Virus record (IMG/VR): IMGVR_UViG_3300025131_000021
Location: 1-64,000 of that record
Direction: 5' to 3' (one strand)
Length of the DNA stretch: 64,000 nt
Source of the DNA: an uncultured virus (IMG/VR IMGVR_UViG_3300025131_000021)
Taxonomy: Duplodnaviria; Heunggongvirae; Uroviricota; Caudoviricetes
Shown here: piece after piece, positions 3,887-61,283 of the stretch
How the letters are laid out: every line of letters begins with the position of its first letter
How positions within the stretch are numbered: position 1 is the first letter of the stretch
The notes under the pieces: generated by a model
The model's input: the letters and a program-made list of their open reading frames with translations, nothing else
Database searches by the model: none
Told to the model about the DNA's origin: nothing
Translations under genes and position numbers: made by a program

Positions 3887-3896
3887 AAAAAAATCC

Positions 3897-4163
3897 TTAT
3901 AATACTACATGTATTCTTGCTACTATGTCAACACTTAATGGTGGAGCAGTTACAAAAATAATTGTTTGTGTACTATTATTAAAAGTATAATCTGTTGTCG
4001 GTTTTTGTAAAACACCTGATAATTGCACCATTAAATCTTTCGCATCAACGCTTCTTTCACTGGCTGGAAAGTTGCTTAACGCATAATCGGTTAGGCTCCC
4101 GTCCCCAACGAACGTCCACATCATAAGATCTGAATTTATTAATGGTTGGCCAATGTATGACAT
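3897..4163 (-). CDS. Small virion structural protein
   Basis: MSYIGQP N-terminus and FVGDGS..VQLSGVLQKPTTDYT..IIFVTAP beta-repeat typical of phage structural proteins. Confidence 0.7.
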   Translation of the reverse strand: MSYIGQPLINSDLMMWTFVGDGSLTDYALSNFPASERSVDAKDLMVQLSGVLQKPTTDYTFNNSTQTIIFVTAPPLSVDIVARIHVVL

Positions 4164-4186
4164 AAAATTCCCTTGTTATATAATAT

Positions 4187-4552: not shown

Positions 4553-7500
4553 CTATTTTAGATCTTCCAGCGCCTTGACTTTTGAGGACAGTTCTTTAAT
4601 TGCATTAGTTAAAATAGGTATCATTTTAACATAATCCAACCAATAATCTGATTCTTTTTCATTATCATTAGGGGTATGTTGCAACATTGATACTGTATTC
4701 TTATCAATTCCTAATTCAGTCAATGCATCTTCCATTTCCTGTGCAATAAAACCAAACTGCTTTGGATCAGTATTATCACTTACAGTTGTTCTATAACTAA
4801 TAGGATCTAAACAAGTGACAAATTCCAGTCCTAATGGTAGTGATTCAATATCACATTTAATTTTTCTATCAGAAGGTGATTGTGTCGCATCAGTGCTAAT
4901 TGCGTACACTTCAGTACCTTGTTTTTGTATAGAAAGTACTTTACCATTAGTAGCATCATTGCGATTTAGTGTCATTGTAGTAACATTCGGACTTATAAAT
5001 GTACTAGCACCATCGCATGTAATGCACATTCTTTTTACTGGTGTACCGTGTGTATAAACAATATAATCTCCAGATGCATCCATGCACATATCATTTGTAC
5101 TATTAAATTGTAATGCTCCGCCAGAATTGAAGCATATATTAGAGCAATAACTTACAGTATCACAAAATGTTGTTGCTCCTTGAAATGTAACTGCGCCAGT
5201 ATTTGAATTAATTGCCGAAACAATGTTAGCATCAGATGCCCATTTATTTGTTAATCCTTCTACTAAGTCATCTGTAGTTTCAGCTCTTAATAATATACCA
5301 CCTTGTTTACCCATGCTAGTATGATTAGCACAACCATAAGAATATCTAGCCTTTGCACTTGTTGGTACAACAAATTGAATATAGGTAGTCGCGGCATTAG
5401 TAAAAGAGGCAACATAATCTGCGGCTGTGGAATATGTATTTCCTCCAACATGATATGATACTCCGGCTGGAGTAGTTGGATTTGATCCTCCATTAAAATC
5501 TACATCTTCTGACAATACTAAAGGATGCCCGGCGTTTGATGCTCCTGATTGTATAATTTTATATGTAAAACCTGGTACAAAATATAGATATGGTTGTGGG
5601 CTCCCACTATCAAATTTAAATTTACTATCAACAACAGTAACATCAAGTTCAATAATAGGAGTGGATGCCGCGGCAGTTGAATCCCACTGTGATCCATCCC
5701 ATCTCATATAATCGCCAGTTCCAGGACTTATTGAAGAATTAACATCACATAATTTTTTAATTGAAGCATCTTGAAGATGTGTATTAAAACATGTCTGATC
5801 ATATGGACTTGTTGAGGTTGCCCAGCAAAATGCTGATCCATTATAATAAAGATATGAGTTAGTTGTTGGACCTGCTGGTACATCACATAAAGTTAAAACT
5901 GAGCTATCACAAACATCAGTTGGTAATGTAATTTGCCCGGTTATGTTATTATAAGCACCTATACCAGAAGTAACACAAACGGAAGCTCTTGCTCTAGTAT
6001 CTGTAAAGTATAATGGACTTGCCCCAAATTCATCAATATCGCATGTATATAAATTAATTGCACCAGTTTTTTCATTAACACAAGTTACATCATTAGTATT
6101 TTGATCTGTTTTAACTTTCCAAGATGTTGTACTATGATTATAATATAAAACTTTACCGTCATCAGCTGATGATACTGCATCAACGTCTGATAAACAAGCA
6201 AAATTTGTAGCACAAATTCGTGTATCTACTCGTGCATCTGTATAATATAAGTTTGACGAACCTTCAGTTACGCAATCTGTACTTGTAGTAACATTATCAA
6301 CATATGCTTTTACTGATTGTTGAGATGGTACTTTAGTTGCACTATTTGAAACCATATTATCTTCGTCAACTAAAGCATTTGTTATTCTTGCATCTGCTCT
6401 TGTATCTGTAAAATATAAGTTTGTTGAACCTTCTGTAATTTCGTCTGTATTATCTTTGCTTGCTACTTGTGCATCAACATATGCTTTTACTGATTGCTGA
6501 GATGGAAGTTTTGTTGCACTATCTGAAACCATGTTATCTTCATCAATTAATGCATTTGTAATTCTTGCATCAGCTCTTACATTTGTATAATATAAATTAC
6601 CACTTTCAGTTATATCACATGTACATAAATTAACATCACCGTGTAAACTATTAATACTCGATACAATAGCAGATAGACCCATTATGCCTGTTGTGCTATT
6701 ATATGTTAAAGCGGAACCACTTACAGAAATTGCACTTCTTGCTTTGGCATCTGTATAATATTGATTAACACATTCATTTATATCACAAGAATGAAGTACA
6801 ACCGCTCCTGTTTTTGTATTAACTTGTGATACTGCATCTGTAAAAGACATAACACCAGTACTATTATTATATGCCAAGGATCCACTAACTGTAATTGCGG
6901 CTCTTGCTCTAGCATCTGTGTAATATAAATCAGTATCTTCTGCTAAATCGCATGTTTTCTTAGTTGCAAAATCTGTATCAAAATCAGCAGTTTTATACGT
7001 TGTTGCTGAAATTACTCCAGTTGCACTATTATACGATATATCACCACTACTACTTAAATGAGCTCTTGTTTCTGATGCAACAGGACCAGTAAATGTAAAC
7101 ACACCAGTCGAACTGTTATATACCATGCTACCATCACCGCCAGCATCTGTTAGTGAAACGGCTCCTCTAGCCCTTGCATTTGTATAATATAAATTACCAC
7201 TTTCAGTTATATCACATGTACATAAATTTATAGAACCAGTGTTTGAGTTAACACAAGTAACACCACCCGTTACAGTAATAACACCAGTACTTGAGTTATA
7301 ACTACCTGAACCAGTTACACTAATTGCTCCTCTAGCCCTTGCATCTGTATAATACAAATCAGTACACTCCGAAATATCACAAGTATAATGATTTGAAACA
7401 TCTGAAATTTTACCATATAAACAATCCGAACGTATAGGCTTATTAAACACCCATTCGTCGTTTGTGCTTGCATAAAGTATTGTAGCATATGGAACAGGAT

Positions 7501-8578
7501 TAGCAGAGCAACATAAAGTTAATTTCAATCCACCACTATTTGCGGCCGAAGGGTTAGTAACAGCGGTTCCTAAAATAGTATTAATCGCACCAATATTTTG
7601 TGTTTCACAACTAACTTGAGTTGTTGTTCCACAAACAGTTAAATCACCAGTGATTAATGAATCACCACAAACTGTAACACAAGCACCTGTATCACATGCT
7701 ATTAATGTATTTGTTATAATATCATCTGCAACTAAATCGTTTGTAACTGTAACACAATTAAAAGTTACATTATTAGTTGTGCCAACTGCTTGTCCTATTG
7801 CTACTGCTCCACTTGTAACTGTAACACCTGTTCCAGCAGTTATAGCGGCACGAGCTCTTGCATCTGTATAATATAGATTTCCACTCTCTGTAATATCACA
7901 TGTACATAAATCAATCGAACCTGTATTTTCATTAACACAAGTGACACCACCTGTAACGTTAATAACACCAGTTGAATTGTCGTAACTACCTGAACCAGTT
8001 ACACTAATTGCTCCACGGACTCGTGCAGTTGTATGATATTGATTAGTCGAGCCTTCAGTTAAATCATCTGTATCATTATTATCTAATGATTCTTTTTGTC
8101 CATCAACATCACAACTAATTGTTTGTAATCGAGTAGCAGAAGGGTGCTTTCTGAGTCTTAATAAATTAGCACCTGTGCCAATTTGTATTTCATCAACAAT
8201 AATCTTTTTTAAGTTATTTGAATCATCTTGTATTTTAAGATCGCCTGAAGCATCTCTAGATAATTTTGTACCAGCAATATCAATAGTGGTACCAGCAGTA
8301 TAGATATCGTTCCATCGCTTTGTTGATGAGCCTAAATCTCTACAACAAGTTTGATCAGGAATTAATGAAGTATCAACAGTATCAAACGATGCGTATATAT
8401 TAGCATCGGATGCATATAAATTCGATCCTTCACTTAAATCAGTTGTAGATTTGGCTGTAAAATCCGTATTAAAACAGGATGAAGCATAATCTGTTTTTGC
8501 ATCTATCTGTGTTTGTACATCAGATGTTACGTTTGCTAGAAAAGGTACCTTATCTGCAATATCTCTGGCTCTACTCAT
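4553..8578 (-). CDS. Long tail fibre with TDDLxEGxxNLYYTxARA repeats, cupredoxin-like domain and C-terminal peptidase S74 intramolecular chaperone
   Basis: Repeated (T/C)DITESGNLYYTDARAR units; H...CxxHxxM motif; C-terminal SDRKIK...FGFIAQE...LTNAIKELSSKVKALE. Confidence 0.85.
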   Translation of the reverse strand: MSRARDIADKVPFLANVTSDVQTQIDAKTDYASSCFNTDFTAKSTTDLSEGSNLYASDANIYASFDTVDTSLIPDQTCCRDLGSSTKRWNDIYTAGTTIDIAGTKLSRDASGDLKIQDDSNNLKKIIVDEIQIGTGANLLRLRKHPSATRLQTISCDVDGQKESLDNNDTDDLTEGSTNQYHTTARVRGAISVTGSGSYDNSTGVINVTGGVTCVNENTGSIDLCTCDITESGNLYYTDARARAAITAGTGVTVTSGAVAIGQAVGTTNNVTFNCVTVTNDLVADDIITNTLIACDTGACVTVCGDSLITGDLTVCGTTTQVSCETQNIGAINTILGTAVTNPSAANSGGLKLTLCCSANPVPYATILYASTNDEWVFNKPIRSDCLYGKISDVSNHYTCDISECTDLYYTDARARGAISVTGSGSYNSSTGVITVTGGVTCVNSNTGSINLCTCDITESGNLYYTNARARGAVSLTDAGGDGSMVYNSSTGVFTFTGPVASETRAHLSSSGDISYNSATGVISATTYKTADFDTDFATKKTCDLAEDTDLYYTDARARAAITVSGSLAYNNSTGVMSFTDAVSQVNTKTGAVVLHSCDINECVNQYYTDAKARSAISVSGSALTYNSTTGIMGLSAIVSSINSLHGDVNLCTCDITESGNLYYTNVRADARITNALIDEDNMVSDSATKLPSQQSVKAYVDAQVASKDNTDEITEGSTNLYFTDTRADARITNALVDEDNMVSNSATKVPSQQSVKAYVDNVTTSTDCVTEGSSNLYYTDARVDTRICATNFACLSDVDAVSSADDGKVLYYNHSTTSWKVKTDQNTNDVTCVNEKTGAINLYTCDIDEFGASPLYFTDTRARASVCVTSGIGAYNNITGQITLPTDVCDSSVLTLCDVPAGPTTNSYLYYNGSAFCWATSTSPYDQTCFNTHLQDASIKKLCDVNSSISPGTGDYMRWDGSQWDSTAAASTPIIELDVTVVDSKFKFDSGSPQPYLYFVPGFTYKIIQSGASNAGHPLVLSEDVDFNGGSNPTTPAGVSYHVGGNTYSTAADYVASFTNAATTYIQFVVPTSAKARYSYGCANHTSMGKQGGILLRAETTDDLVEGLTNKWASDANIVSAINSNTGAVTFQGATTFCDTVSYCSNICFNSGGALQFNSTNDMCMDASGDYIVYTHGTPVKRMCITCDGASTFISPNVTTMTLNRNDATNGKVLSIQKQGTEVYAISTDATQSPSDRKIKCDIESLPLGLEFVTCLDPISYRTTVSDNTDPKQFGFIAQEMEDALTELGIDKNTVSMLQHTPNDNEKESDYWLDYVKMIPILTNAIKELSSKVKALEDLK

Positions 8579-9935
8579 TGAGCTCCTCCATTAATAACTT
8601 ATAAAATTTCCCATTTGTATGGTTAAAAACTCTTATATATTCTGATTGCTCATCAAGTGTAAAATGTCCGTTATCGTTGTGCATATGTAAATCACCAATA
8701 GTAGTTGACGAAGCAAATACGTCTTTCCAACGTTTTCCTGCTTCTCCTAAACAATGAGTATCATCAACACTAGGAAGAATATGATTTGGAAATGCTTGCA
8801 TCTGGGCACAAGTATAATGACTTGCTGAATCAAATGTTGCATAGGAAACTGTTTCTAATACATCACTAACATTTGCACCTGAATTTAATACAACCGAAGT
8901 ATTGTTGTTTGCTACAAAATCATTTGATGCACCTTCTATTAATTTAATACCATTTAAAAATACATCTATGTGTCCTGTTGTATAGCATTGTGCAGGCGTA
9001 AACGTTGTTTGACTAGCAGTTGCCGTAAATGCTTCTGTTACAATAGTGCTTCTTTCAGCATTACCATTTGTAATACATAATTGTTTCGGGTTTGATCCTG
9101 TATTTGTTGCTATTGTAATACCTGTTCCTGCTACTACTTCTAATGTATCATTATTAGTAGCAACTAAACTGCTTTGTCCTGATACTTCTAATGTTTTATA
9201 TGATACACCTGAACTTCCAACAGTAACAGTACCACTACCATTATCAGTTAATTCAAATCCACAATTAACATCAAATTTAAAAGTATCTACATTTGCTACT
9301 ATGGTATTTGAAACTGGATCGTTTATTTCACATACATTAATAGCAACTCCTGCATCACACCATGCAAAAGCACTACCTGTCCAAATAAGATTTTGATTAC
9401 TACTAGGACTTGCAGGAATATCACATAATGATTCAATACCAACACCTAGTGTTCCGTTTGTAGCACACCCTGATGTACCTATATTAAGTACACCTGTTGA
9501 ATCAGATGATAAAACAGTATCGCATACTGTAAGAGTACCATCCATACTAACATTTCGCAATGTAGCAATATCTTTATTAGCATCAACAACAAGAGCATTA
9601 TTACCGGCTACTGTACCATCTGTAATTCCATTAATTTTTGCAATATCGGTTTCGGAAACACTTTCTGCACCCATACATAATATATCTGTACAAACTGCTG
9701 TAGAAGCACAAATTGTTCCAACATCAATATTGGCTGTTTTTACACCAACTGTATAAACACATTTCCATTGATTTGTATTACCATCGCTCCCGACTCCGTC
9801 TAAACCAATACAATATGAGTCGTGGTCAATAGGTACAATGTTCTGATTAATTTGAGTAAGATCAACACCCGATTGAGTTAGTTGCCTCTTATTGTTATAA
9901 TTAATATTAGGATTAAAATATGAAAAAGATCCCAC
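8571..9935 (-). CDS. Fibre/virion structural protein, Cys-rich
   Basis: GTG start; beta-rich fibre motifs (FTATASQTTF..IDVFLNGIKL, HILPSVDDTHCLGEAGKRWKD, TIGDLHMHN). Confidence 0.75.
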   Translation of the reverse strand: MGSFSYFNPNINYNNKRQLTQSGVDLTQINQNIVPIDHDSYCIGLDGVGSDGNTNQWKCVYTVGVKTANIDVGTICASTAVCTDILCMGAESVSETDIAKINGITDGTVAGNNALVVDANKDIATLRNVSMDGTLTVCDTVLSSDSTGVLNIGTSGCATNGTLGVGIESLCDIPASPSSNQNLIWTGSAFAWCDAGVAINVCEINDPVSNTIVANVDTFKFDVNCGFELTDNGSGTVTVGSSGVSYKTLEVSGQSSLVATNNDTLEVVAGTGITIATNTGSNPKQLCITNGNAERSTIVTEAFTATASQTTFTPAQCYTTGHIDVFLNGIKLIEGASNDFVANNNTSVVLNSGANVSDVLETVSYATFDSASHYTCAQMQAFPNHILPSVDDTHCLGEAGKRWKDVFASSTTIGDLHMHNDNGHFTLDEQSEYIRVFNHTNGKFYKLLMEELNE

Positions 9936-9938
9936 TTA

Positions 9939-10289
9939 CTATCCTCCTAACGCTATTGCAAATGCAATAGCACTTTCATCTATTTGTGATTGCAACGAAG
10001 TCGTTGACGGTTTAAAACTTGACGAAACTGTATCATATGTTAAGTAATATCCTGCCGCCGGAGTTACACTTGAATCATATGAAACCACATTTTTCCAAGT
10101 AGCATTACCATAATGTTCTAATTGATTTGTATCACTATTAAATCTTAAAGATCCATCAGTTGCAACACCTGTTTGCGAACGCCCCGAAGTTGTACCAACA
10201 GGTAATATAATAGCACCATTTTGATCAACAGTTAAAACTTGACTGCTACTACTGATTTTGTTTAATTGATGATTTAAATTTATTGCCAT
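9939..10289 (-). CDS. Small virion structural/adaptor protein
   Basis: LPVGTTSGR..GSLRFNSDT module; C-terminal AIAFAIALGG. Confidence 0.7.
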   Translation of the reverse strand: MAINLNHQLNKISSSSQVLTVDQNGAIILPVGTTSGRSQTGVATDGSLRFNSDTNQLEHYGNATWKNVVSYDSSVTPAAGYYLTYDTVSSSFKPSTTSLQSQIDESAIAFAIALGG

Positions 10290-10299
10290 TTTTTATTTC

Positions 10300-11892
10300 C
10301 TAACTTGTAATCATACTATGATACGGTTCTATATAAGGCATTCTTAAATATCTATTTGGTGCACCACATATACTATCGTCATTATTATAATCATCATCTA
10401 ATCCTGTTGAATATAATCTATTTGCTATACCTTCATCAATGAGCCATTGATTAGCATCATCTTGTGTCCAAGTAGGATGAAGTTGTAACATACAAGCAAT
10501 TACTCCAGTTACTTGCGGACTTGCCATACTTGTACCTGATAATGCAGTAACTTTATAACTAGAATTTCTTGGATCATTGTAGCCACTTATATAAGGACTC
10601 ATAATATTTGATCCTGGTGCCCATATATGTAATCTTGCGCCTTTAGTTGACGAATATCTAGTTTGCTCATACCATGTTCCACCTGACGATAGATATGATC
10701 CTTCAACATTACCAACAAGTCCTATATTTGCTGTTGATGTTGTTGGTGTACCACCTCTATGATAATACTTAATACTATTATAATATTTGTCAAAATACCA
10801 ATTATTATAATCAATATGCCCTGAACCTACAATTACATACTTGTTATTGCCAGCGGCATTATACATTATTATTCCATCATCTATGCAATCTTGTACATCT
10901 GCATCAATTGATGAAACAAAATTACCATGAGTACTACTTACACCTATTCCTCTATTTTCTAATTCTGCTGGACTTGGCCAATCACTTCCAGTATAACTAC
11001 CAGCACCCCAATCACCATGTGATCCAGTATATTCATAAGTCCAATCTGTTCCTCTATAAGTTCCATAAACAGGTTGCAAAGCATTAGTATAATATGACCA
11101 ACTATTATTACAAACAGTAGGTCTACCTGCATTAGGACCTGATTTATTATTATGCCATCCTCTAATTAATTCAAAACAAGTATATGAACTAATTGCATAC
11201 GTATTTGATAATGTAGCCATTGCATATATGTCTGCACCTCTTGCCCAGCCGTGTGTATTACCTGCGGCTGTTCCTGCTACATGACTTCCGTGTCCGTTTT
11301 GATCGCTGTAAAAATTAGCATTTTGAGAACCAGAAATTCCTGATTCCGTATACCAATCTATTTCTTGTATTCGAGATCCACCAGTACCATCAGGATTAAC
11401 TGTGTACTCTGGATGCCCGGCAGTTATACCTGTATCAATTATAACTACATCAACACCTGTGCCATCTAATGCATAATCATGATCAGCGGTTATACTTGTA
11501 CTATTAACACCTCCAAATGCATCAGTATTATTAGTATAAGAACAACTACGTAATCCCCAATTTTTTATATCAGAACCTCCTGAAGTTCTATGAAATTGTG
11601 CATCTTCATATTTTCCAAGAGTCGTAACAGGCATATTTAATATTTCCTGTTTTAATTGTACATCTAGTACTCGCGAATCATTTCTTAATTCTGCGGCTTC
11701 TAAATGTGATAATGCATACTCTGTATTTCGTTTACTTCCCGGTCGTTTATCAACCCAATCAATAGGTTTATCCGGAATACTGGCTAAACTTGTATCAGAG
11801 TTTTTGAGCCCCGATGTGTCTTTTGTCATTTGATCAAAGAACTCTGACGGGTCACAATCTTTCTTCAGAGTAACTACATATTCTTGTTCCAT
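10300..11892 (-). CDS. Subtilisin-like serine protease (S8) with I9-like propeptide
   Basis: Catalytic motifs VVIIDTG, GHGSHVAG, NAAGN, GTSMASPQV; N-terminal EYVVTLKK. Confidence 0.93.
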   Translation of the reverse strand: MEQEYVVTLKKDCDPSEFFDQMTKDTSGLKNSDTSLASIPDKPIDWVDKRPGSKRNTEYALSHLEAAELRNDSRVLDVQLKQEILNMPVTTLGKYEDAQFHRTSGGSDIKNWGLRSCSYTNNTDAFGGVNSTSITADHDYALDGTGVDVVIIDTGITAGHPEYTVNPDGTGGSRIQEIDWYTESGISGSQNANFYSDQNGHGSHVAGTAAGNTHGWARGADIYAMATLSNTYAISSYTCFELIRGWHNNKSGPNAGRPTVCNNSWSYYTNALQPVYGTYRGTDWTYEYTGSHGDWGAGSYTGSDWPSPAELENRGIGVSSTHGNFVSSIDADVQDCIDDGIIMYNAAGNNKYVIVGSGHIDYNNWYFDKYYNSIKYYHRGGTPTTSTANIGLVGNVEGSYLSSGGTWYEQTRYSSTKGARLHIWAPGSNIMSPYISGYNDPRNSSYKVTALSGTSMASPQVTGVIACMLQLHPTWTQDDANQWLIDEGIANRLYSTGLDDDYNNDDSICGAPNRYLRMPYIEPYHSMITS

Positions 11893-11897
11893 AATAC

Positions 11898-11904
11898 TAT
11901 TTAT
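11898..11904 (-). promoter_or_regulatory. Putative late promoter 5 nt upstream of ATG (possibly leaderless mRNA)
   Basis: ATAAATA then GTATT then ATG; no Shine-Dalgarno room. Confidence 0.55.
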
Positions 11905-11916
11905 TGCAAAATATTA

Positions 11917-13734
11917 TTATGTAATTTCTATAGTCCAGGATCCGTCTTTAAAGGGCATGTTGGCGTATCGGTTATGTCCGCCATGTAGGCTGTCTGTAAC
12001 AGTATAATCTTGGCCGCCACCGAGCCAGGCTGCTGTGGGGCCTGCGCCATACCTATCTGCGGGAGTATTTGTAGTACCTTGGTGAATTGCTCCGGATTTA
12101 TGACATTCTGATCGTACAAAATCACGGACATTTTTTTGATTCCAATGAGGATTGGCTTCAAGTAAACAAGCAACCATACCACATACTTGTGGGCTTGCCA
12201 TACTTGTACCACTTAATGATTTCCAATGGTAACTAGAATCTCTAGGGTCGGTCCAGGAACTATTTGCGGCATTTACAGGTCCTGCAATATTAGTTCCGGG
12301 GGCCCATACATCTATTCTAGGTCCACTATTTGAATAATCTGCTTTTTTCTCTGTTGTTGTTCCAGGTTTATTAGTATCAGCGATTGCTCCAACACAAACA
12401 GGCATCATTCCATTATCATTCCAATGCGAACCTGGGGAGCCACCTTGCATATGTTTTATTGAGCCTCTACTAACAGTTCCGTATTCGGTTGCCCAGTCTC
12501 TACCTAAATCTGACATATTTAATTTTCTCGGACAACCATCAGTATCGTTATATGCAACATCTATTTTGTGATATTCATTACCTGCGGCGGCTACAAAAAT
12601 TACTCCAACATCCATACATTGTTCCATATCTGCTTTTATATCTGATCTAACTCGCGGATGCACCCAATAATTAGATGGATCATCTGTATCTTCGTATCCT
12701 GTTTCACCAAAAAATTCTTTACGTTGGTTTCCTGATGTATATCCTGCTTCAGCAAATCTGTAAGCCTGACCAGAATCATAAGGATAATCACCATATCTCC
12801 ATGCATGTATTGTCATATTCCAATAATGCTCTAAAATAATCCAACTTTGATTTACTACTGTAGGTCGTTTATATCCAGTTGATGCCTGGGCTGTTTTTTG
12901 TGTATGAAATGCTTCTATCATATCAAAACTATATGCATGAGAAACATATGCGGCATCTTGAATTTTTTGTGACCATATACCTGCTTCTGTTGCCCATCCA
13001 CAAGTATTACCTACTGCTATTCCAGCAACATGAGATCCATGTCCGTAACTATCATTATGATAACCATCATAACTATAACCACCAGGCATATTAATACCTA
13101 ATGCATTCCACCAATGATATGTGCTATCGTATCTTGAACCACCTGTGCCATCAGGATTAATTGCAAACTCGGGATGATCTCCTATTATACCTGTGTCTTG
13201 AATTATAACATCTACTCCTTTACCTGTCAAGTTATAACCATACTTTCCAGTAAGTTCTGTAGAGTTACTATTCCATCCTCCAGCAGTTGTAGTCATAGAA
13301 CGTAAACCCCAATTTACATCCCATGCTTGCGATGGACTCCTATCAAAATTCATATCAGTTGGTGCCCACCCTACTGCTCCTTGGGTACCTCTATAATGAC
13401 ATAATCCTATATTTTGATGGGGATCGTTTTCAAATGGAATTTGCACATCGTCGACTCTAGGATCTTTACGTAACTCTCGCACTTCTTCTAAAGACATGCT
13501 ATAATGTGTATTACAATTACTTTTTTCTCGTCTATTTACAGTATCTATAGTTCTTGTTGGTATTTGTCCTGTATCGGAAAGGGAGGCTGAATCACGAATC
13601 ATTTTATCATGAAAATCTGTTGCATCTGCATCTTTTTTTAATGTCACGATATACTCCTCTTGAGCAGTCATATCAAGACCGTTTGCAATTTCTTCTTCTT
13701 CTAGTGCTTTTAATTCATCTAATATGTCGCTCAT
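11917..13734 (-). CDS. Subtilisin-like serine protease (S8), paralog of adjacent gene
   Basis: VIIQDTG, GHGSHVAG, AAAGN, GTSMASPQV; shares NPDGTGGSR and DPRxSSY with its neighbour. Confidence 0.93.
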   Translation of the reverse strand: MSDILDELKALEEEEIANGLDMTAQEEYIVTLKKDADATDFHDKMIRDSASLSDTGQIPTRTIDTVNRREKSNCNTHYSMSLEEVRELRKDPRVDDVQIPFENDPHQNIGLCHYRGTQGAVGWAPTDMNFDRSPSQAWDVNWGLRSMTTTAGGWNSNSTELTGKYGYNLTGKGVDVIIQDTGIIGDHPEFAINPDGTGGSRYDSTYHWWNALGINMPGGYSYDGYHNDSYGHGSHVAGIAVGNTCGWATEAGIWSQKIQDAAYVSHAYSFDMIEAFHTQKTAQASTGYKRPTVVNQSWIILEHYWNMTIHAWRYGDYPYDSGQAYRFAEAGYTSGNQRKEFFGETGYEDTDDPSNYWVHPRVRSDIKADMEQCMDVGVIFVAAAGNEYHKIDVAYNDTDGCPRKLNMSDLGRDWATEYGTVSRGSIKHMQGGSPGSHWNDNGMMPVCVGAIADTNKPGTTTEKKADYSNSGPRIDVWAPGTNIAGPVNAANSSWTDPRDSSYHWKSLSGTSMASPQVCGMVACLLEANPHWNQKNVRDFVRSECHKSGAIHQGTTNTPADRYGAGPTAAWLGGGQDYTVTDSLHGGHNRYANMPFKDGSWTIEIT

Positions 13735-26598: not shown

Positions 26599-27454
26599 AC
26601 GGCATATCATAGTCTCTACGAGTATTACTCCAATGAGCATTTATACCATCCCATTTTTGAGAAACTTTAGCCATTGCTTTCCAAGACATTTCTTCCTTAG
26701 GTATTTTAGTTGCAGGTTCTCTTATTAATTTATGAGGTAATGGATTTTTGTATGTACGTAATTTTACATTTGAATATTTGTAGATATGTGACCATCCAGT
26801 ATGTGTATGAAAATGTCTTTCTTTTATTTTAGGATCTGTTATACAAAATTTCATAATATCTAGAATAGGTTCATATAACATTTTTGAAGCACTATGACTT
26901 CCAAAGTATACTATATCTACAATTTTTGTTTTGCCACGTTTTAAAGTCATATCTGTTGTATACATGCCATCAGGCTCTTTATTTTTTGCCCAACTTATTG
27001 CATCTTCAATGGGAGCGGCCGCATTATAGTTTATAGCACAATCTAATCGCATTCTATATACAATGTCGTAATTATCTTCTAATAATTTAAAACTATTATA
27101 TGCACTAAAAAACATGCCGTATGCTTGATAATTTCCTGCATGTCCAATTTCATGTTCTGTTTCTTGTTTTTCAGGATCTCCCCAATAGCAACAATCTGGA
27201 TTTTCTTCAAGCCATTCGTCTATAATATTATACCCTGTAATTTCTATACGTTTAAAAGGATAACAATCATTTAAATCTCGTTTTAATTTTTCTAAATCAT
27301 GTTTTACAACGACTTCGGCTACTGTTTGAGTATCCCATGTATGTAAGTAATAATCAACAGAGGTTTCCTCAGTTTCAAAATATTTTCGATTGAATAAACA
27401 TCCTATATCTGCAAACCGAGGTTGTCCACTAAAACATACTGCTACTTTTTTCAT
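26588..27454 (-). CDS. Putative glycosyltransferase-like protein
   Basis: KVAVCFSGQPR, DYYLHTW, YDIVYRMRLD motifs seen in phage/LPS-cluster GT-like proteins. Confidence 0.6.
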   Translation of the reverse strand: MKKVAVCFSGQPRFADIGCLFNRKYFETEETSVDYYLHTWDTQTVAEVVVKHDLEKLKRDLNDCYPFKRIEITGYNIIDEWLEENPDCCYWGDPEKQETEHEIGHAGNYQAYGMFFSAYNSFKLLEDNYDIVYRMRLDCAINYNAAAPIEDAISWAKNKEPDGMYTTDMTLKRGKTKIVDIVYFGSHSASKMLYEPILDIMKFCITDPKIKERHFHTHTGWSHIYKYSNVKLRTYKNPLPHKLIREPATKIPKEEMSWKAMAKVSQKWDGINAHWSNTRRDYDMPSTF

Positions 27455-27885
27455 ATTTCAAGTTGTGTGAAATCATCAGAACAGACTCCATAGAAGTCGC
27501 CTAATTTCATTGAGGGTGTTGGTTTTACTGCTATTGTGCGAGCGTCATTACCTGATTGTCCTGGATATGCCCATATGTATCCTTGAGACGTAACAGTATA
27601 ATTATCTTCTTGGTGCCAAAATACATTTATCTTTTGATATGAAAGTAAATTATTTAAAGCCTCGAAATTTTTAGCATGACACCATAATCGATCTTGTCTA
27701 TCTTGTAACCACGAAAAGTCTATCATGTACTTAGGATTGTCGTGTCCAAGCCATAAGCCATCTTTGTGATACCAAACATCAATTTCTGCTTCGTATCCGT
27801 TACTTAAAGATTTATCAATATATTCAGGAGCATTTTCAAGATCATTACTACCATTAGTATTACCTCTATGTGCTATCTTAATCAT
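27451..27885 (-). CDS. Glycerophosphodiester phosphodiesterase-like (PLC-like) protein
   Basis: MIKIAHRGN, EIDVW, LGHD, WCHAKN, GVCSD; GGAG RBS before ATG 27885. Confidence 0.8.
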   Translation of the reverse strand: MIKIAHRGNTNGSNDLENAPEYIDKSLSNGYEAEIDVWYHKDGLWLGHDNPKYMIDFSWLQDRQDRLWCHAKNFEALNNLLSYQKINVFWHQEDNYTVTSQGYIWAYPGQSGNDARTIAVKPTPSMKLGDFYGVCSDDFTQLEI

Positions 27886-27902
27886 ATATCTTTTCTCCAT
27901 AC

Positions 27903-27958
27903 TTAAACGATGAGCTTTGCTCATCGAAACTATCAGATACTCCGTATCTTCAGTTTAA
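27903..27958. other. Twin triloop hairpins / three-way junction
   Basis: CGATGAGC-ttt-GCTCATCG (27908-27926) and AGATAC-tcc-GTATCT (27935-27949), flanked by TTAAAC/GTTTAA. Confidence 0.6.
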
Positions 27959-28004
27959 ATTGTTTGTTATGTTACTTATTATAGATATTAACTGATTTAT
28001 AGAA

Positions 28005-28370
28005 CTTATTCCCCGAGTGTCAAGCCACACTTAGCCTGTATATGGCTAAGTGTCCTATTCCCCTCGGAATGCACACCTCCTATTAACTAACCTAATTAAA
28101 GGAAAAGGCGGTTGGGCTGTACCCTTTTACAGTCTACTATACCAACGCAGGCTGAATGGTTATAACTATAGGAGGCAGTTTATAACCAGCCTTGCAAGTT
28201 CCAAAGTCGTCAGGATTGCTTGCTCGTTCCCATCTCGTGATGTATGGGCATGTTAATGATCATTGCCAACGGAAATCCGAACTAACACTATGTACTCATA
28301 GTATCGCTAGTCCTCGACCGGTCATTTCTGACAGTTTAGGGCGTATGGGTTACCTTTGATCGAAAGGTAT
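28005..28370 (-). ncRNA. Candidate large structured ncRNA with pseudoknot (family unknown)
   Basis: GC-elevated non-coding gap with at least 7 stems, an 8-bp loop-distal pairing and a minus-strand GAAA tetraloop. Confidence 0.6.
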
Positions 28371-28858
28371 TTTACTGAGTCTTTGTTTAATTGCCAAAAG
28401 TCGTTGTAGCCTGTGAAAAGCCAGTTTTTGTATATTGTATGTCTGTGGGTTTTAAAAGAGAGATTGTGGAGGGATTCTTGGAAGCCTATGTATTTGCCTT
28501 TGCGGTTAAATTTTAGTATTAATAAGTTCAAATCTTTTTCTTCTGATACATCTAATAGTTGTTCTGTCCATTCTTCTAATAGCCTAATTTCACCATCAAA
28601 TAAAAACTGGTGAAACGGAAAATCTGCATATGATTTACATTCTACGTTAAAATATTTCCACTCGTCGGGTGGTATTATGTCTCCTCTGAAAGACTGTATT
28701 TGTCCCTCGGATAAAAAATCTTTTCGTACGACATTAGAGCCGCCAACATAAGCACCCGACGACGGAGTTCTTACAAAACTCTCGTCGTACAGTTCGGATA
28801 ATTCTTTTGCAACATCTCGTTCAAATGAACTACCTTTAATTTTGCTTTTACTCGGCAT
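28322..28858 (-). CDS. Holliday junction resolvase (PD-(D/E)xK)
   Basis: SKIKGSSFERDVAKEL, RTPSSGA, GDII, VECK. Confidence 0.85.
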   Translation of the reverse strand: MPSKSKIKGSSFERDVAKELSELYDESFVRTPSSGAYVGGSNVVRKDFLSEGQIQSFRGDIIPPDEWKYFNVECKSYADFPFHQFLFDGEIRLLEEWTEQLLDVSEEKDLNLLILKFNRKGKYIGFQESLHNLSFKTHRHTIYKNWLFTGYNDFWQLNKDSVKYLSIKGNPYALNCQK

Positions 28859-29264
28859 CCTCTTGTATTGTTATAGCACCGGAGTCTACTTCTGCTTCTA
28901 CCGCGGCTTCGTTTATTGCTGTTAAATCTTCAAGTGATTCTTTTACTTCATCAACTGCTTCTTCTTCGGGTATATCCAATACACTCATTTCAGGTTCACT
29001 AAGATTTGGAGGGTCAAGTGCTTTCCATAAATCCTCTAATGTAAACCCTGAATCAATCCCGCATGAGCGGTCAATGTCAAATCCATCATCTACGTTTATT
29101 CCCTCTTTTTGAAGCCAATCTATAAACGCAGGATAATTTCCATCATCTTTAAACCCGGCTAAAGAAATAATGCCAGGTGCTTCACCTACGCTATTTGAAT
29201 GCTTCCATGCTCGTTTAACTATACCTGATAATAGTTCTTCATCGTTTGTTCTTTCTACTGTCAT
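28848..29264 (-). CDS. Acidic hypothetical protein (likely start ATG 29264)
   Basis: AGGA RBS before ATG overlapping the pyrD stop. Confidence 0.6.
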   Translation of the reverse strand: MTVERTNDEELLSGIVKRAWKHSNSVGEAPGIISLAGFKDDGNYPAFIDWLQKEGINVDDGFDIDRSCGIDSGFTLEDLWKALDPPNLSEPEMSVLDIPEEEAVDEVKESLEDLTAINEAAVEAEVDSGAITIQEDAE

Positions 29265-29956
29265 GAAATTATTCCTTGTATCTTCCACGGTGTAAAGCAA
29301 ATAGTCCCTAAACTAAAGTGATCTGCTCCATGGTCCTTATACATATTTATTGTGTCCTTCGTGTAAATTCCTCCACCTGCTATAACGGTCACTGAGGGAT
29401 ACTTTGTCTTTATGAGCTTCAGAATCTTTAATGTGTAAGGCACTATCGCCGGTCCGCTCAACCCACCTTTCTCCGTTTGGATCGTGTTCGAAGCGTGTAT
29501 CTGAGTGTATCCGCTCGCAAGGACGGATTCTATCTCTTGTTCTGTATACGTAGGGGGTATTTTGCAAATACACCATTCTCTTTTATCCTCTGTCCATTTA
29601 CTAAATTGGGTACTACTTATATTATTGCATGAACTATGCAAATTGTCAATATTTGGACAAGAAATGTTTATTTCTACAGATGCGTTACTAGGCACAATGT
29701 TATACATCTTGTGCCAGTCATTATCTTCTATTTGTGCTAAACTTAAAATTTCCCAAGGTTTGTGTTTACGTACTCCAACATGTATGCCCGGATTACGTAA
29801 TCCAATTCTATTTATCCAGCCACCACGTGTTGGCCGTAAAGTCTTTACAATTTGTTTTAATCGTCCTGGTCTTGATTCTAAAGTCCACGAACCTGTTACT
29901 GATATTGTGTTTTTAAACTTTAAATAATTTCCAAATGGTGCAGATATAAAGTACAT
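29261..29956 (-). CDS. pyrD: Dihydroorotate dehydrogenase (short form)
   Basis: INRIGLRNPG, EINISCPN, KIPP, SNT, GGLSG, IAGGGI, GAD motifs. Confidence 0.85.
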   Translation of the reverse strand: MYFISAPFGNYLKFKNTISVTGSWTLESRPGRLKQIVKTLRPTRGGWINRIGLRNPGIHVGVRKHKPWEILSLAQIEDNDWHKMYNIVPSNASVEINISCPNIDNLHSSCNNISSTQFSKWTEDKREWCICKIPPTYTEQEIESVLASGYTQIHASNTIQTEKGGLSGPAIVPYTLKILKLIKTKYPSVTVIAGGGIYTKDTINMYKDHGADHFSLGTICFTPWKIQGIIS

Positions 29957-35762: not shown

Positions 35763-36049
35763 TGACAAAACCAACAAGCCACTATTCAACTACAACTTCT
35801 AATAACAAATACCTCGATATCTGGAACCCCCCTTCGCTACTAACAAAAACAGGTAAAGAGCAAACAGTAACAATCGAATCAAAATATGCAAATCGTCCTG
35901 ATTTGCTTGCTTCAGATTTATATGGTTCTCCTAGATTATGGTGGACTTTTGCATACTTAAATGCAGATAAACTTGAAGATCCTATATGGGATTTTAAGGC
36001 GGGTCTGGACATTCTTATATTCGATCCAACTGATATAAGAAGGGTATAA
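35762..36049 (+). CDS. gp53: Baseplate wedge protein, LysM-like (gp53-like)
   Basis: RPDLLASDLYGSPRLWWTFAYLN. Confidence 0.85.
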   Translation: MTKPTSHYSTTTSNNKYLDIWNPPSLLTKTGKEQTVTIESKYANRPDLLASDLYGSPRLWWTFAYLNADKLEDPIWDFKAGLDILIFDPTDIRRV

Positions 36050-36050
36050 C

Positions 36051-60206: not shown

Positions 60207-61283
60207 ATGGCATACACAATAACAGGAGCAGATGGTTCAGTAGTTGCAACTATCTCTGATGGTACAACAGATACGACGTCTACGCCATTAACTCTTGTAG
60301 GAAAAAATAGTACAAACTATGGGTTACATCTTAATACGAACATGGTTTCGTTATTAAATAACTTCTCAAGTTCAACAAATCCTACAAATGCAATAATTGG
60401 CCAAATGTGGTTTGATAGTGGTAATAATCGATTAAAATACCTAGATACTGGTCGCAATTGGAGAATTACACCAAACTTAGTTGTTTCGGGCACACAACCA
60501 ACTAACCAGCAACAAGGTGATTTTTGGCTCGATTCAACAGATAATGTTCTTAAAGTATATTCAGGATCGACATATAGTTCAATGGGATTAGGATCAAGTA
60601 GTGCTGGTTCTGTTGTTGCTAAAACAATAAATGATAGCACGGGTTCAGCAAAAGCAATTATGGAATTTATTGCTAGTAATAAAACTATGTTTATAATGAC
60701 CTCCGAGAATCAGTTTACTCCATCATCTACTGCTACACAAGCCGACGGCACTTTGTATACTGCAAATTTTCCAATAATTAAACCAGGAATAAATTTACGG
60801 CAAGATACAACAATGAATCCAAGGTATTGGGGAATAGCAAGTAGTTCTGAATATGCTGATTTGGCAGAAAGATATGAAGCCGATGCCAATTACGAGCCTG
60901 GTACTGTAATGATGCTAGGAGGTACAAAAGAAGTTACGCAAACTACTGCCAAAGGCCAGCTAAATGTTATAGGAGTTGTGTCAACTGCACCAGCATACTT
61001 AATGAATTCAGAAGCAGGAACAGATGCGACGCATCCTCAAATAGCAATGATGGGAAGAATTCCATGCAAAGTAGTAGGAAAAATTAACAAATTTGACGTA
61101 ATGGTAACCAGTAATACACCAGGAGTTGCAACATCAATAAGTGGACTAATGACCCGTGAAGCATATACTAAGTATAGTAGTCAAATTGATTCAGAATTTA
61201 AAATTGGTTTTGCTAAAGCATTAGAAAGTTATGATAGTACCAGCGTTGGATCAATTGAAGTAATGATTATGCGATCGTTTTAA
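60207..61283 (+). CDS. Short fibre/baseplate protein with C-terminal peptidase G2-like autocleaving chaperone
   Basis: LTLVGKN..YG, GQMWFDS, YADLAERY, VIGVVSTAPAYLMN, GRIPCKV. Confidence 0.75.
   Translation: MAYTITGADGSVVATISDGTTDTTSTPLTLVGKNSTNYGLHLNTNMVSLLNNFSSSTNPTNAIIGQMWFDSGNNRLKYLDTGRNWRITPNLVVSGTQPTNQQQGDFWLDSTDNVLKVYSGSTYSSMGLGSSSAGSVVAKTINDSTGSAKAIMEFIASNKTMFIMTSENQFTPSSTATQADGTLYTANFPIIKPGINLRQDTTMNPRYWGIASSSEYADLAERYEADANYEPGTVMMLGGTKEVTQTTAKGQLNVIGVVSTAPAYLMNSEAGTDATHPQIAMMGRIPCKVVGKINKFDVMVTSNTPGVATSISGLMTREAYTKYSSQIDSEFKIGFAKALESYDSTSVGSIEVMIMRSF

Follow-up and report, generated by a model that had tools for sequence, protein, structure and literature searches.

A conserved, doubly knotted RNA with twin co-varying repeats in uncultured T4-like phages and small bacterial integrative elements

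The window analysed here is the whole of a 64,000-nucleotide (64-kb) stretch of DNA from an uncultured virus, comprising positions 1 to 64,000 of the IMG/VR virus record IMGVR_UViG_3300025131_000021 (73.5 kb, CheckV completeness 20%). Two minus-strand open reading frames (ORFs), at 28322-28858 and 27451-27924, are separated by a gap of 397 nucleotides (nt) at 27925-28321, which is the longest stretch in the window without an ORF of at least 100 amino acids (aa), the others being 219-300 nt long. The next-longest stretches of this kind lie at 3887-4186 (300 nt) and 35763-36050 (288 nt). The GC content of the gap is 0.44, compared to 0.28-0.35 in its flanks, and profile matches (Pfam and PHROG) place T4-like genes around it, including those for a T4 baseplate protein and a gp46/SbcC-like ATPase. 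No minus-strand ORF of at least 30 aa is present inside 27925-28321, and no ORF in the gap is conserved across 17 related loci. An earlier reading of the window sequence, hereafter the original prediction, had singled out this gap as unusually large, GC-rich and full of stems, which it is, and had proposed that it specifies a large structured RNA. Our analysis shows that the gap is the gene for a non-coding RNA of ~325 nt that is read from the minus strand. This RNA is conserved, strand-specific and doubly knotted, and its family is found in uncultured T4-like phages, some with genomes of ~330 kb, as well as in small integrative elements of bacteria. As delimited here, the structured RNA spans 28002-28332 on the minus strand (~325-331 nt), from a hairpin at the stop codon of the upstream nuclease gene to just past the second of two repeats (R1 and R2), and it coincides with the block that is conserved in relatives.

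Folding exceeds that of shuffled controls in both energy and comparative assays, as the original prediction required of a true RNA. The fold-energy z-score is -2.5 for the minus strand and -3.4 for the plus strand, with none of 100 shuffles being as stable, although these values are modest when taken alone. We drew a structure of the 323-nt window RNA by hand, containing helices P1, Pa, Pc and H5-H11, one pseudoknot and one loop-loop kiss (window coordinates are obtained as 28325 minus the position in this RNA). When this structure is placed on an alignment of 15 sequences (A1), 78.4% of cells are paired versus 73.7% in shuffled alignments, and 31 of 83 pairs change on both sides versus 16.4 in shuffles, neither value being reached by any of 500 shuffles. 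Sliding the 3' partners by 1-3 columns reduces pairing to 31-49%. Moreover, A-U alternates with G-U in H11 (CUUAGCC or CUUGGCC against GGCUAAG), and the same alternation is seen in other helices. Because these G-U pairs would be C-A mismatches on the other strand, the minus strand is the one that folds, in line with the RNA-level, minus-strand element originally proposed. Every stem listed in the original prediction is also present at its position in the sequence.

The proposed 8-bp pseudoknot between CCTCCTAT and ATAGGAGG (28168-28175 with 28076-28083) is real, and it covaries. Given that MAFFT sets the two strands out of register between subgroups, so that the helix scores only 61% in that alignment, we tested this pairing in an alignment-free manner. 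The H6 loop pairs with the 10 nt preceding GUGUG with a score of at least 6 in 79 of 83 RNAs, the four exceptions scoring 4-5. There are 38 distinct 3' strands, and the mean pairing score is 7.45 for cognate strands versus 4.80 for non-cognate ones, only 3.6% of which reach the cognate median. A second tertiary contact joins the H7 loop (GUUNN) to the near-invariant H8 loop (NNAAC); pair 4 of this kiss is canonical in 79 of the 83 RNAs and pair 5 in 68, with G-C, A-U, U-A and C-G alternating.

All helices described next are on the minus strand and are taken from the 5' end. Hairpin P0 (GUCA-GAAA-UGAC, 28321-28332) encloses the nuclease stop codon at 28322-28324, and relatives have GUC-GUAA-GAC or GUC-UUAUUU-GAC at this position; the stem is invariant, so it offers no covariation. 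The 5' strand of P1 (CC ... CGAG, 28313-28321) pairs with 28012-28017 and thereby closes the RNA onto the 5' flank of R2. Its two helices (1-2) have 97% and 90% of cells paired, a C-G in the window being U-A in most relatives, although columns 10/396 are mismatched in 4 of 15 sequences. Pa (ACUAGC...GUUAGU, 28281-28311; helix 3) is 97% paired with two pairs changed on both sides (A-U/G-C, 7:6), and it is extended by an inner ACUAUG/CAUAGU in the window group only. Pc (CCCAU/AUGGG, 28229-28248) lies in a variable region shared with the closest relatives only, 6 of the 15 sequences having letters there. H5 (GCAAG/CUUGC with an inner UCC/GGA, 28194-28223; helices 6-7) follows a conserved AACGAG/AAUGAG and is 92% and 91% paired; six of its eight pairs change on both sides, giving variants such as GUGAG/CUCAC, GUAGG/CCUAC and GGGG/CCCC across the family. 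H6 (GCUG-GUUAUAA ... UUAUAAC-CAGC, 28151-28190) carries the 5' strand of the pseudoknot as its loop CCUCCUAU (28168-28175), whereas the 3' strand AUAGGAGG (28076-28083) is directly followed by the conserved GUGUG. H7 (CUGC/GUAG, 28134-28150, 93% paired) presents GUUGG (28142-28146) to CCAAC (28111-28115) in the near-invariant loop UACAGCCCAACCG of H8 (AAAGGG/CCUUUU, 28103-28127), the stem of which occurs in 25 variants among the 83 RNAs. The small hairpin H9 (CCU-UUAAUU-AGG, 28091-28102) is 67% paired in the MAFFT alignment and varies in length, some relatives having a 25-nt insertion, and in the window R1 lies in the 3' strand of the local hairpin H10 (AUUCC, 28066-28070, with GGAAU, 28057-28061). 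Finally, H11 (ACACUUAGCC ... GGCUAAGUGU, 28027-28053) is the most conserved hairpin. Its 3' strand GGCUAAGUGU, which ends at 28027, continues into GUGUGGC (family consensus GGCUAAGUGUGAC), and the hairpin is invariant or near-invariant in the 83 RNAs (CUUAGCC/GGCUAAG-UGUGAC), with CUGAGCC/GGCUCAG in a Limnohabitans copy.

The stems of the original prediction fared unevenly in this comparison. Those corresponding to H11 (ACACTTAGCC/GGCTAAGTGT), to H8 (AAAAGG/CCTTTT around GGUACAGCCCAACCG) and to H6 (TGGTTATAA/TTATAACCA) stand, as do CCCAT/ATGGG, ACTATG/CATAGT and GUCA-GAAA-UGAC across the stop codon. The extension of H6 by GCAGGC/GCCTTGC competes with the covarying helices H5 and H7 and is dropped, and the outer stem ATTC..CGAG/CTCGGAAT does not hold as drawn, being better described as the closing helix P1 between the 5' and 3' ends together with a local hairpin. 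The TACCTTT/AAAGGTA stem lies within coding sequence.

Relatives of the upstream nuclease gene are found at 27 IMG/VR loci. An ORF-poor gap of 330-500 nt lies 3' of this gene in all 17 loci inspected, and blastn and nhmmer searches find the window gap sequence in 26 of the 27, that is, in every locus reaching past the end of the gene; the 27th (L028) ends inside it and hence is not assessable. The expectation that the RNA would be conserved in related phages is thus borne out in 26 of 26 assessable loci. A wider search used a pattern of 17 bases from two invariant motifs (AACCGC, 65-95 nt, GGCTAAGTRTG), which matches at least 120 viral loci. Among the matches listed, an nhmmer profile of the window group confirms 86 of 120 and a broader profile adds seven, leaving 93 confirmed and 27 unconfirmed; 86 distinct RNAs remain among these matches after removal of duplicates. 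The RNA therefore has homologues at 93 or more further IMG/VR loci and in three bacterial integrative elements. Some of the viral carriers are contigs of 209-331 kb that are 60-93% complete. Blastn searches of 50,697 deposited phage genomes with the window RNA, the whole RNA of a relative and the 3' core of that RNA found it in none (E <=10).

In bacterial genome contigs, the same pattern matches at least 120 loci, two of which are confirmed among the matches listed, and the RNA is rare in bacteria: RF01718, the Rfam family discussed below, occurs in 1 of 151 genomes in a sample of the Limnohabitans family, and the pattern occurs in 8 of 401 Rhodobacteraceae genomes, where only the locus of the seed genome is confirmed (1/401). 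An integrase adjoins the RNA in all three bacterial instances. In Limnohabitans, where RF01718 matches at 53 bits and the 3' core at E 1e-12, the RNA precedes an ORF of 68 aa and a tyrosine recombinase (226 aa). In a single-cell contig from the Rhodobacteraceae, the RNA lies between a full-length I-TevI-like GIY-YIG endonuclease and a convergent P4-type integrase. In a metagenome-assembled genome (MAG) of the Halieaceae, it is part of an element of ~8 kb (L296, G005:C69:165000-182000, positions 4733-12716) that holds the RNA, an integrase, a phrog_15261 ORF and an alkaline phosphatase gene, and that is bounded by direct repeats, 49 nt long, matching the 3' portion of tRNA-Val(GAC). The phrog_15261 ORF bears a weak likeness to small terminases, and the element is possibly a phage satellite. 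The repeats of the RNA in this island, which alone has an insertion site that can be determined, contain GGACAG, sharing a run of 4 nt with the tRNA into which the island is inserted, a single case that could have arisen by chance. No tRNA genes are found beside the other two islands on their contigs.

A covariance-model search of Rfam, which the original prediction had suggested, finds no family at gathering score for the window RNA, and region 27850-28450 gives only a chance snoRNA match at E <=10. RF01718 (Polynucleobacter-1) in particular is matched by the window neither at its gathering score (37 bits) nor at E <=10. The 5' ~140 nt of many relatives, however, is RF01718, which scores 54-114 bits in 17 of 30 loci (6 of 10 in one set, then 11 of 20). 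The window and the other 13 have 5' domains that are different and shorter. The window-group profile nonetheless matches the 3' ~150-230 nt of the RF01718-bearing loci (E 1e-3 to 1e-35), which have the pseudoknot, the kiss, H11 and the twin repeats in the same order as the window, so that the RNAs are homologous. A core of ~230 nt at the 3' end, running through H5, H6 with its pseudoknot loop, H7 and H8 with their kiss, and H11, is common to all members. The RF01718 model stops just before the A-rich stretch that precedes H5 and hence does not include this core, and scans of the relatives find no Rfam family that covers it. As 13 of 30 relatives and the window lack RF01718, the family consists of one constant 3' core joined to at least three kinds of 5' domain.

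Polynucleobacter-1 was described, in the part of Weinberg et al. 2010 (PMC2864571) that deals with it, as a likely RNA represented by 16 sequences from Burkholderiales and from fresh water or estuaries, an aquatic-metagenome setting like that of the present RNA. The name appears nowhere else in the literature that we searched. The 141-nt RF01718 element is the 5' domain of many homologues, in each of which the 3' core of the window follows. Both the model and the first rows of the 2010 alignment (PMC2864571) end soon after this domain and accordingly lack the pseudoknot, kissing loops, H11 and twin repeats, and the 2010 table (PMC2864571) draws no link between RF01718 and phages. The original suggestion of a new class of large phage RNA is right as to size and pseudoknotting and wrong as to complete novelty, the 5' domain of many homologues being RF01718. 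As far as these searches show, neither the window variant nor the conserved 3' core nor the twin repeats have been described before. Moreover, ARAGORN detects no tRNA or tmRNA in the 64-kb window, Rfam gives no tmRNA match, and no intron or ribozyme family is matched by the window at E <=10 or by ten relatives at E <=1.

An unusual property of the RNA is a pair of direct repeats on either side of H11. In the window, R1 (28056-28063) and R2 (28007-28014, 49 nt after R1) share the core GGGGAAUA, which occurs nowhere else on that strand within the 64 kb; one extra GGGGAATA, at 60829, is unremarkable. R1 and R2 are 49-65 nt apart across the 83 RNAs, which contain 65 different R1/R2 pairs with, among them, 33 different shared cores of 7-10 nt. 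A shared run of at least 7 nt is present in 88% of cognate pairs versus 2% of non-cognate pairs with a different core. In close relatives, single-base changes are mirrored in both repeats, as in UGUCAAG, UGCCAAG and UGUGAAG, or AGUCAAG and AGACAAG; further mirrored variants are AGAUAAU, GGAUAAU, GCAUAAU, AGAUGAG and AGAUAGA. The consensus of R2 is a-U-C-u-N-G-N-N-A-A. Since each repeat follows a helix and GUGUG(AC), the 3' end of the RNA resembles two similar modules. The repeats have no mutual-information partner column within the RNA, and small ORFs or stop codons in them are in no consistent frame. A model in which one upstream strand chooses between R1 and R2 fits the window group only and fails elsewhere, and a helix between the 5' tail and R2 in RF01718-type relatives shows no covariation.

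Tentatively, we favor the view that this is a folded RNA of mobile elements that acts in trans, as a scaffold displaying one short, fast-changing recognition sequence in two identical copies to an external partner. That partner might be a complementary nucleic acid bound at two sites, or it might be a dimeric factor whose natural ligand, for example the anticodon loop of a tRNA, the repeats would mimic. Antisense pairing and mimicry are both kept as readings. Because the repeats change fast, in mirrored fashion and on mobile elements, a role in conflict or addressing among phages, hosts and mobile elements is suggested.

In favor of this view, both repeats are predicted to be unpaired more often than the core as a whole (probability 0.50 for R1, 0.62 for R2 and 0.42 for the core). 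Several observations weigh against it. The excess in accessibility is modest, R1 lying above the domain mean in 49 of 76 RNAs and R2 in 57 of 76. For the window group, moreover, pairing is predicted for part of R1 (in H10) and for the first bases of R2 (in P1), so the repeats of this group are not simply free single strands. No complement of the repeat core (a run of at least 6, G-U allowed) occurs at a consistent place inside the 76 RNAs, no perfect complement is found at a consistent position within 1.5-3 kb flanks, and the core is not enriched in the window or in the genomes of three large relatives. A sequence-specific protein, rather than base pairing, could in principle keep the repeats identical. 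In addition, metatranscriptome contigs from four marine RNA libraries are thin (depth 2-4) and extend over genes and RNA alike, with no ends or joints, and RF01718 is tabled by Weinberg et al. 2010 as a possible cis-regulator ('cis-reg? y') in the part of that paper concerned with it (PMC2864571).

The last point belongs to an alternative that we regard as unlikely, namely that the RNA is a 5' untranslated region (UTR) controlling the next gene, as a leader or riboswitch with R2 and the ensuing hairpins as expression platform. Support for this idea is provided not only by the discoverers' own entry for RF01718 in the 2010 table (PMC2864571) but also by the fact that the RNA always lies upstream of a same-strand gene in phages. 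The near-invariant loop nucleotides of the conserved core are aptamer-like, RF01718-type relatives have a UUCG hairpin after R2, and two conserved hairpins precede the next gene in the window. The genes that follow, however, are unrelated between subgroups (phrog_34507, low-complexity proteins, a 150-aa family, a 68-aa ORF with an integrase, and a convergent integrase), and for this reason the RNA is not the leader of any one gene. Moreover, the hairpins after R2 have no U tract, a ligand-dependent switch has no use for mirrored variation in R1 and R2, and the alternative-pairing model, in which one strand chooses between the repeats, failed beyond the window group.

In the window itself, the downstream gene (phrog_34507, 27451-27924, minus strand) is unrelated to those of other members. 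Its protein has an IAHRG...E.D motif that we take to be the one seen in glycerophosphodiester phosphodiesterases; Pfam gave no match. The first of the two conserved hairpins is AAACUGAAGAUAC-GGA-GUAUCUGAUAGUUU at 27927-27956, with a purine-rich internal loop, and the second is CGAUGAGC-AAA-GCUCAUCG at 27908-27926, both on the minus strand and both kept in relatives with compensatory changes, for example GAUCUGAAGAAAC...GUUUCUGAAAGAUC. Judged from sequence, they could serve the downstream gene as a translational operator or as a site of protein binding. Given that the ATG at 27924 is inside the second hairpin and that relatives start after this hairpin, the gene probably starts at the ATG at 27900 (MEKRYMIK...). 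In RF01718-type relatives (L110:1740-3086, L107, L121, L099, L073 and L103), the downstream proteins are long, of low complexity, and share only the N-terminus M-K/R-x-x-D/E-h-h-x-E, which presumably resembles the signal that directs internal proteins of T4 to the capsid and to cleavage.

On the other side of the RNA, the gene at 28322-28858 (minus strand) encodes a 178-aa stand-alone PD-(D/E)XK protein that matches Pfam PF24608 (PDDEXK_15, E 3e-25) and also PHROG 244, 'RusA-like Holliday junction resolvase' (E 8e-18). Its original label of Holliday junction resolvase thus has the backing of PHROG, whereas Pfam assigns it to the PDDEXK_15 nucleases. Scanning 56 upstream ORFs (57 candidates, with one near-duplicate, L009, left out) gives 14 PDDEXK_15 proteins, 40 of the SegE-type GIY-YIG family and two without a family. 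Both nuclease types consist of the catalytic domain only (140-180 aa), and they are exchanged between closely related RNAs (L026 versus L122). Across loci L049-L168 and the window, either type is found at the same position beside the gp46-like gene. This exchange looks like non-orthologous replacement, possibly of a junction-resolving enzyme.

It is improbable, in our estimation, that the RNA is the partner of a neighbouring enzyme, guiding or regulating the upstream nuclease or the island integrase with R1 and R2 as twin guides. The 14 PDDEXK_15 and 40 SegE-type ORFs among 56, catalytic domains without other parts, the exchange of nuclease type next to closely related RNAs, the I-TevI-like GIY-YIG gene before the RNA in the Rhodobacteraceae contig and the integrases in 3/3 bacterial instances all favor it. 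Nevertheless, the SegE-type gene is present in 460 deposited phage genomes, mostly cyanophages, while the RNA is in none of the 50,697 records searched with blastn; it follows that the nuclease does not need the RNA. In the two of these genomes that were inspected, Melnitz and phiN3, neither a gap nor the RNA follows the SegE-type gene. Conversely, Limnohabitans and 2 of the 56 viral loci have the RNA without an upstream nuclease, no target for the repeats has been found, and non-orthologous replacement beside gp46/47 fits a housekeeping junction-resolving nuclease or parked homing nucleases. We read the adjacency as a shared place in the recombination block, or as homing-type nucleases parked by a conserved gene. 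A specific version, in which the two identical segments of 7-10 nt pair with one short sequence on two nucleic-acid partners or on the strands of a palindrome and recruit the upstream nuclease (of either type) or island integrase, is slightly less probable still; if true, it would be a previously unseen RNA-guided system of phages and islands. A single hint for it, which chance could give, is the GGACAG in the repeats of the island inserted in tRNA-Val(GAC). The hallmarks of OMEGA and bridge RNAs are absent, in that the neighbours are PDDEXK_15, SegE_GIY-YIG or tyrosine integrases rather than IscB, TnpB or IS110-type proteins, and no R1/R2 target was found.

A further idea, likewise improbable and akin to the ribozyme of the original prediction, is that the element is a self-processing RNA or the remnant of a mobile intron, in which R1 and R2 would be twin cleavage or ligation sites releasing a fragment with H11. 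Phage group I introns may carry endonuclease genes, and the present order, in which a large pseudoknotted RNA comes after a nuclease gene, is similar; near-invariant loop nucleotides hint at an active site, and the two identical sites on either side of a hairpin are reminiscent of processing sites that occur in pairs. The lack of any intron or ribozyme family match (window E <=10, ten relatives E <=1) argues against it, as do the flanking ORFs, which are complete and are different genes rather than halves of one, and the absence of any segment that pairs with R1 or R2 in the manner of an internal guide.

Of similarly low probability is the replication origin that the original prediction had entertained, with the transcript as R-loop or primer and the direct repeats as protein-binding iterons in DNA: iterons are direct repeats of replicon-specific sequence, the site is within a replication/recombination block (gp46-like gene, nuclease) and a satellite-like island carries a copy, but one-strand G-U covariation and two conserved tertiary contacts are superfluous for a DNA site or an unstructured R-loop, the twin repeats are not needed by the latter, there are only two repeats and these are 49-65 nt apart, no conserved AT-rich unwinding element lies within the RNA element, and cumulative GC skew falls steadily through 27-31 kb with no turn at 28 kb, a weak test because T4-type phages use several origins and recombination-driven replication.

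The RNA can be set beside several known systems. GOLLD and ROOL RNAs are carried by phages and prophages, and to our knowledge neither has been described as having twin repeats that co-vary. The parts of a recent preprint that concern them (bioRxiv 10.1101/2024.12.08.627333) present them as likewise large, intricately folded and seemingly protein-independent. The present RNA has no sequence or model match to them and is smaller, at about 330-450 nt.

In the immunity system of satellite phage P4, the CI RNA lies between two target sites, seqA and seqC, that are complementary to it. The family resembles this in that two short sites flank a hairpin, specificity differs between elements and a satellite-like integrative element is a carrier; here, however, the hairpin between the repeats is invariant, and no complement of R1 or R2 is present in or near the RNA (76 RNAs and fetched flanks). 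The translational operator of E. coli thrS contains two anticodon-arm mimics that bind the dimeric synthetase. Two copies of an anticodon-loop-like sequence are similarly present here, N-N-[G-N-N]-A-A resembling positions 32-38 of G34 tRNAs, and one R subgroup has U before the triplet. In contrast to thrS, most members do not hold R1 in the 7-nt loop of a 5-bp stem, A or G often precedes the triplet, and the triplet varies widely between related phages; we know of no synthetase link for this RNA. Finally, bypassing in phage T4 gene 60 employs a take-off codon and a landing codon that match each other and are separated by 50 nt around a hairpin. Identical short sequences ~50 nt apart (49 in the window) with a stable hairpin after the first are reminiscent of it, but repeat identity extends over 7-10 nt rather than one codon, and no ORF enters R1 or leaves R2.

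These results change the status of RF01718, an orphan since 2010, which is only a 5' section, not always present, of a far larger RNA whose conserved part is a double-pseudoknot core absent from Rfam. The carriers of this RNA are T4-like phages, giant ones among them, and small integrative elements, and not bacteria in their own right. Few natural RNAs have twin sequences that change together, and such sequences provide a direct experimental handle. If R1 and R2 turn out to act as guides or mimics, the RNA would represent a new type of programmable molecule for recognition in the conflict between phages and hosts; otherwise, it is a well-defined large structured RNA fit for structural work.

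As for transcription, a sigma-70-like promoter match (TTGGCA, 17 nt, TAAAAT; 10/12) lies at 28369-28397 on the minus strand, within the final part of the nuclease gene. The match is to the consensus only, and the two such matches in the region, compared to 4.1 expected in shuffles, are not significant alone. Co-transcription of the RNA with the recombination genes, as originally suggested, is possible. Within the same replication/recombination block, the phage ORF at 29261-29956 (minus strand) contains a dihydroorotate-dehydrogenase-like domain (PF01180, E 3e-16).

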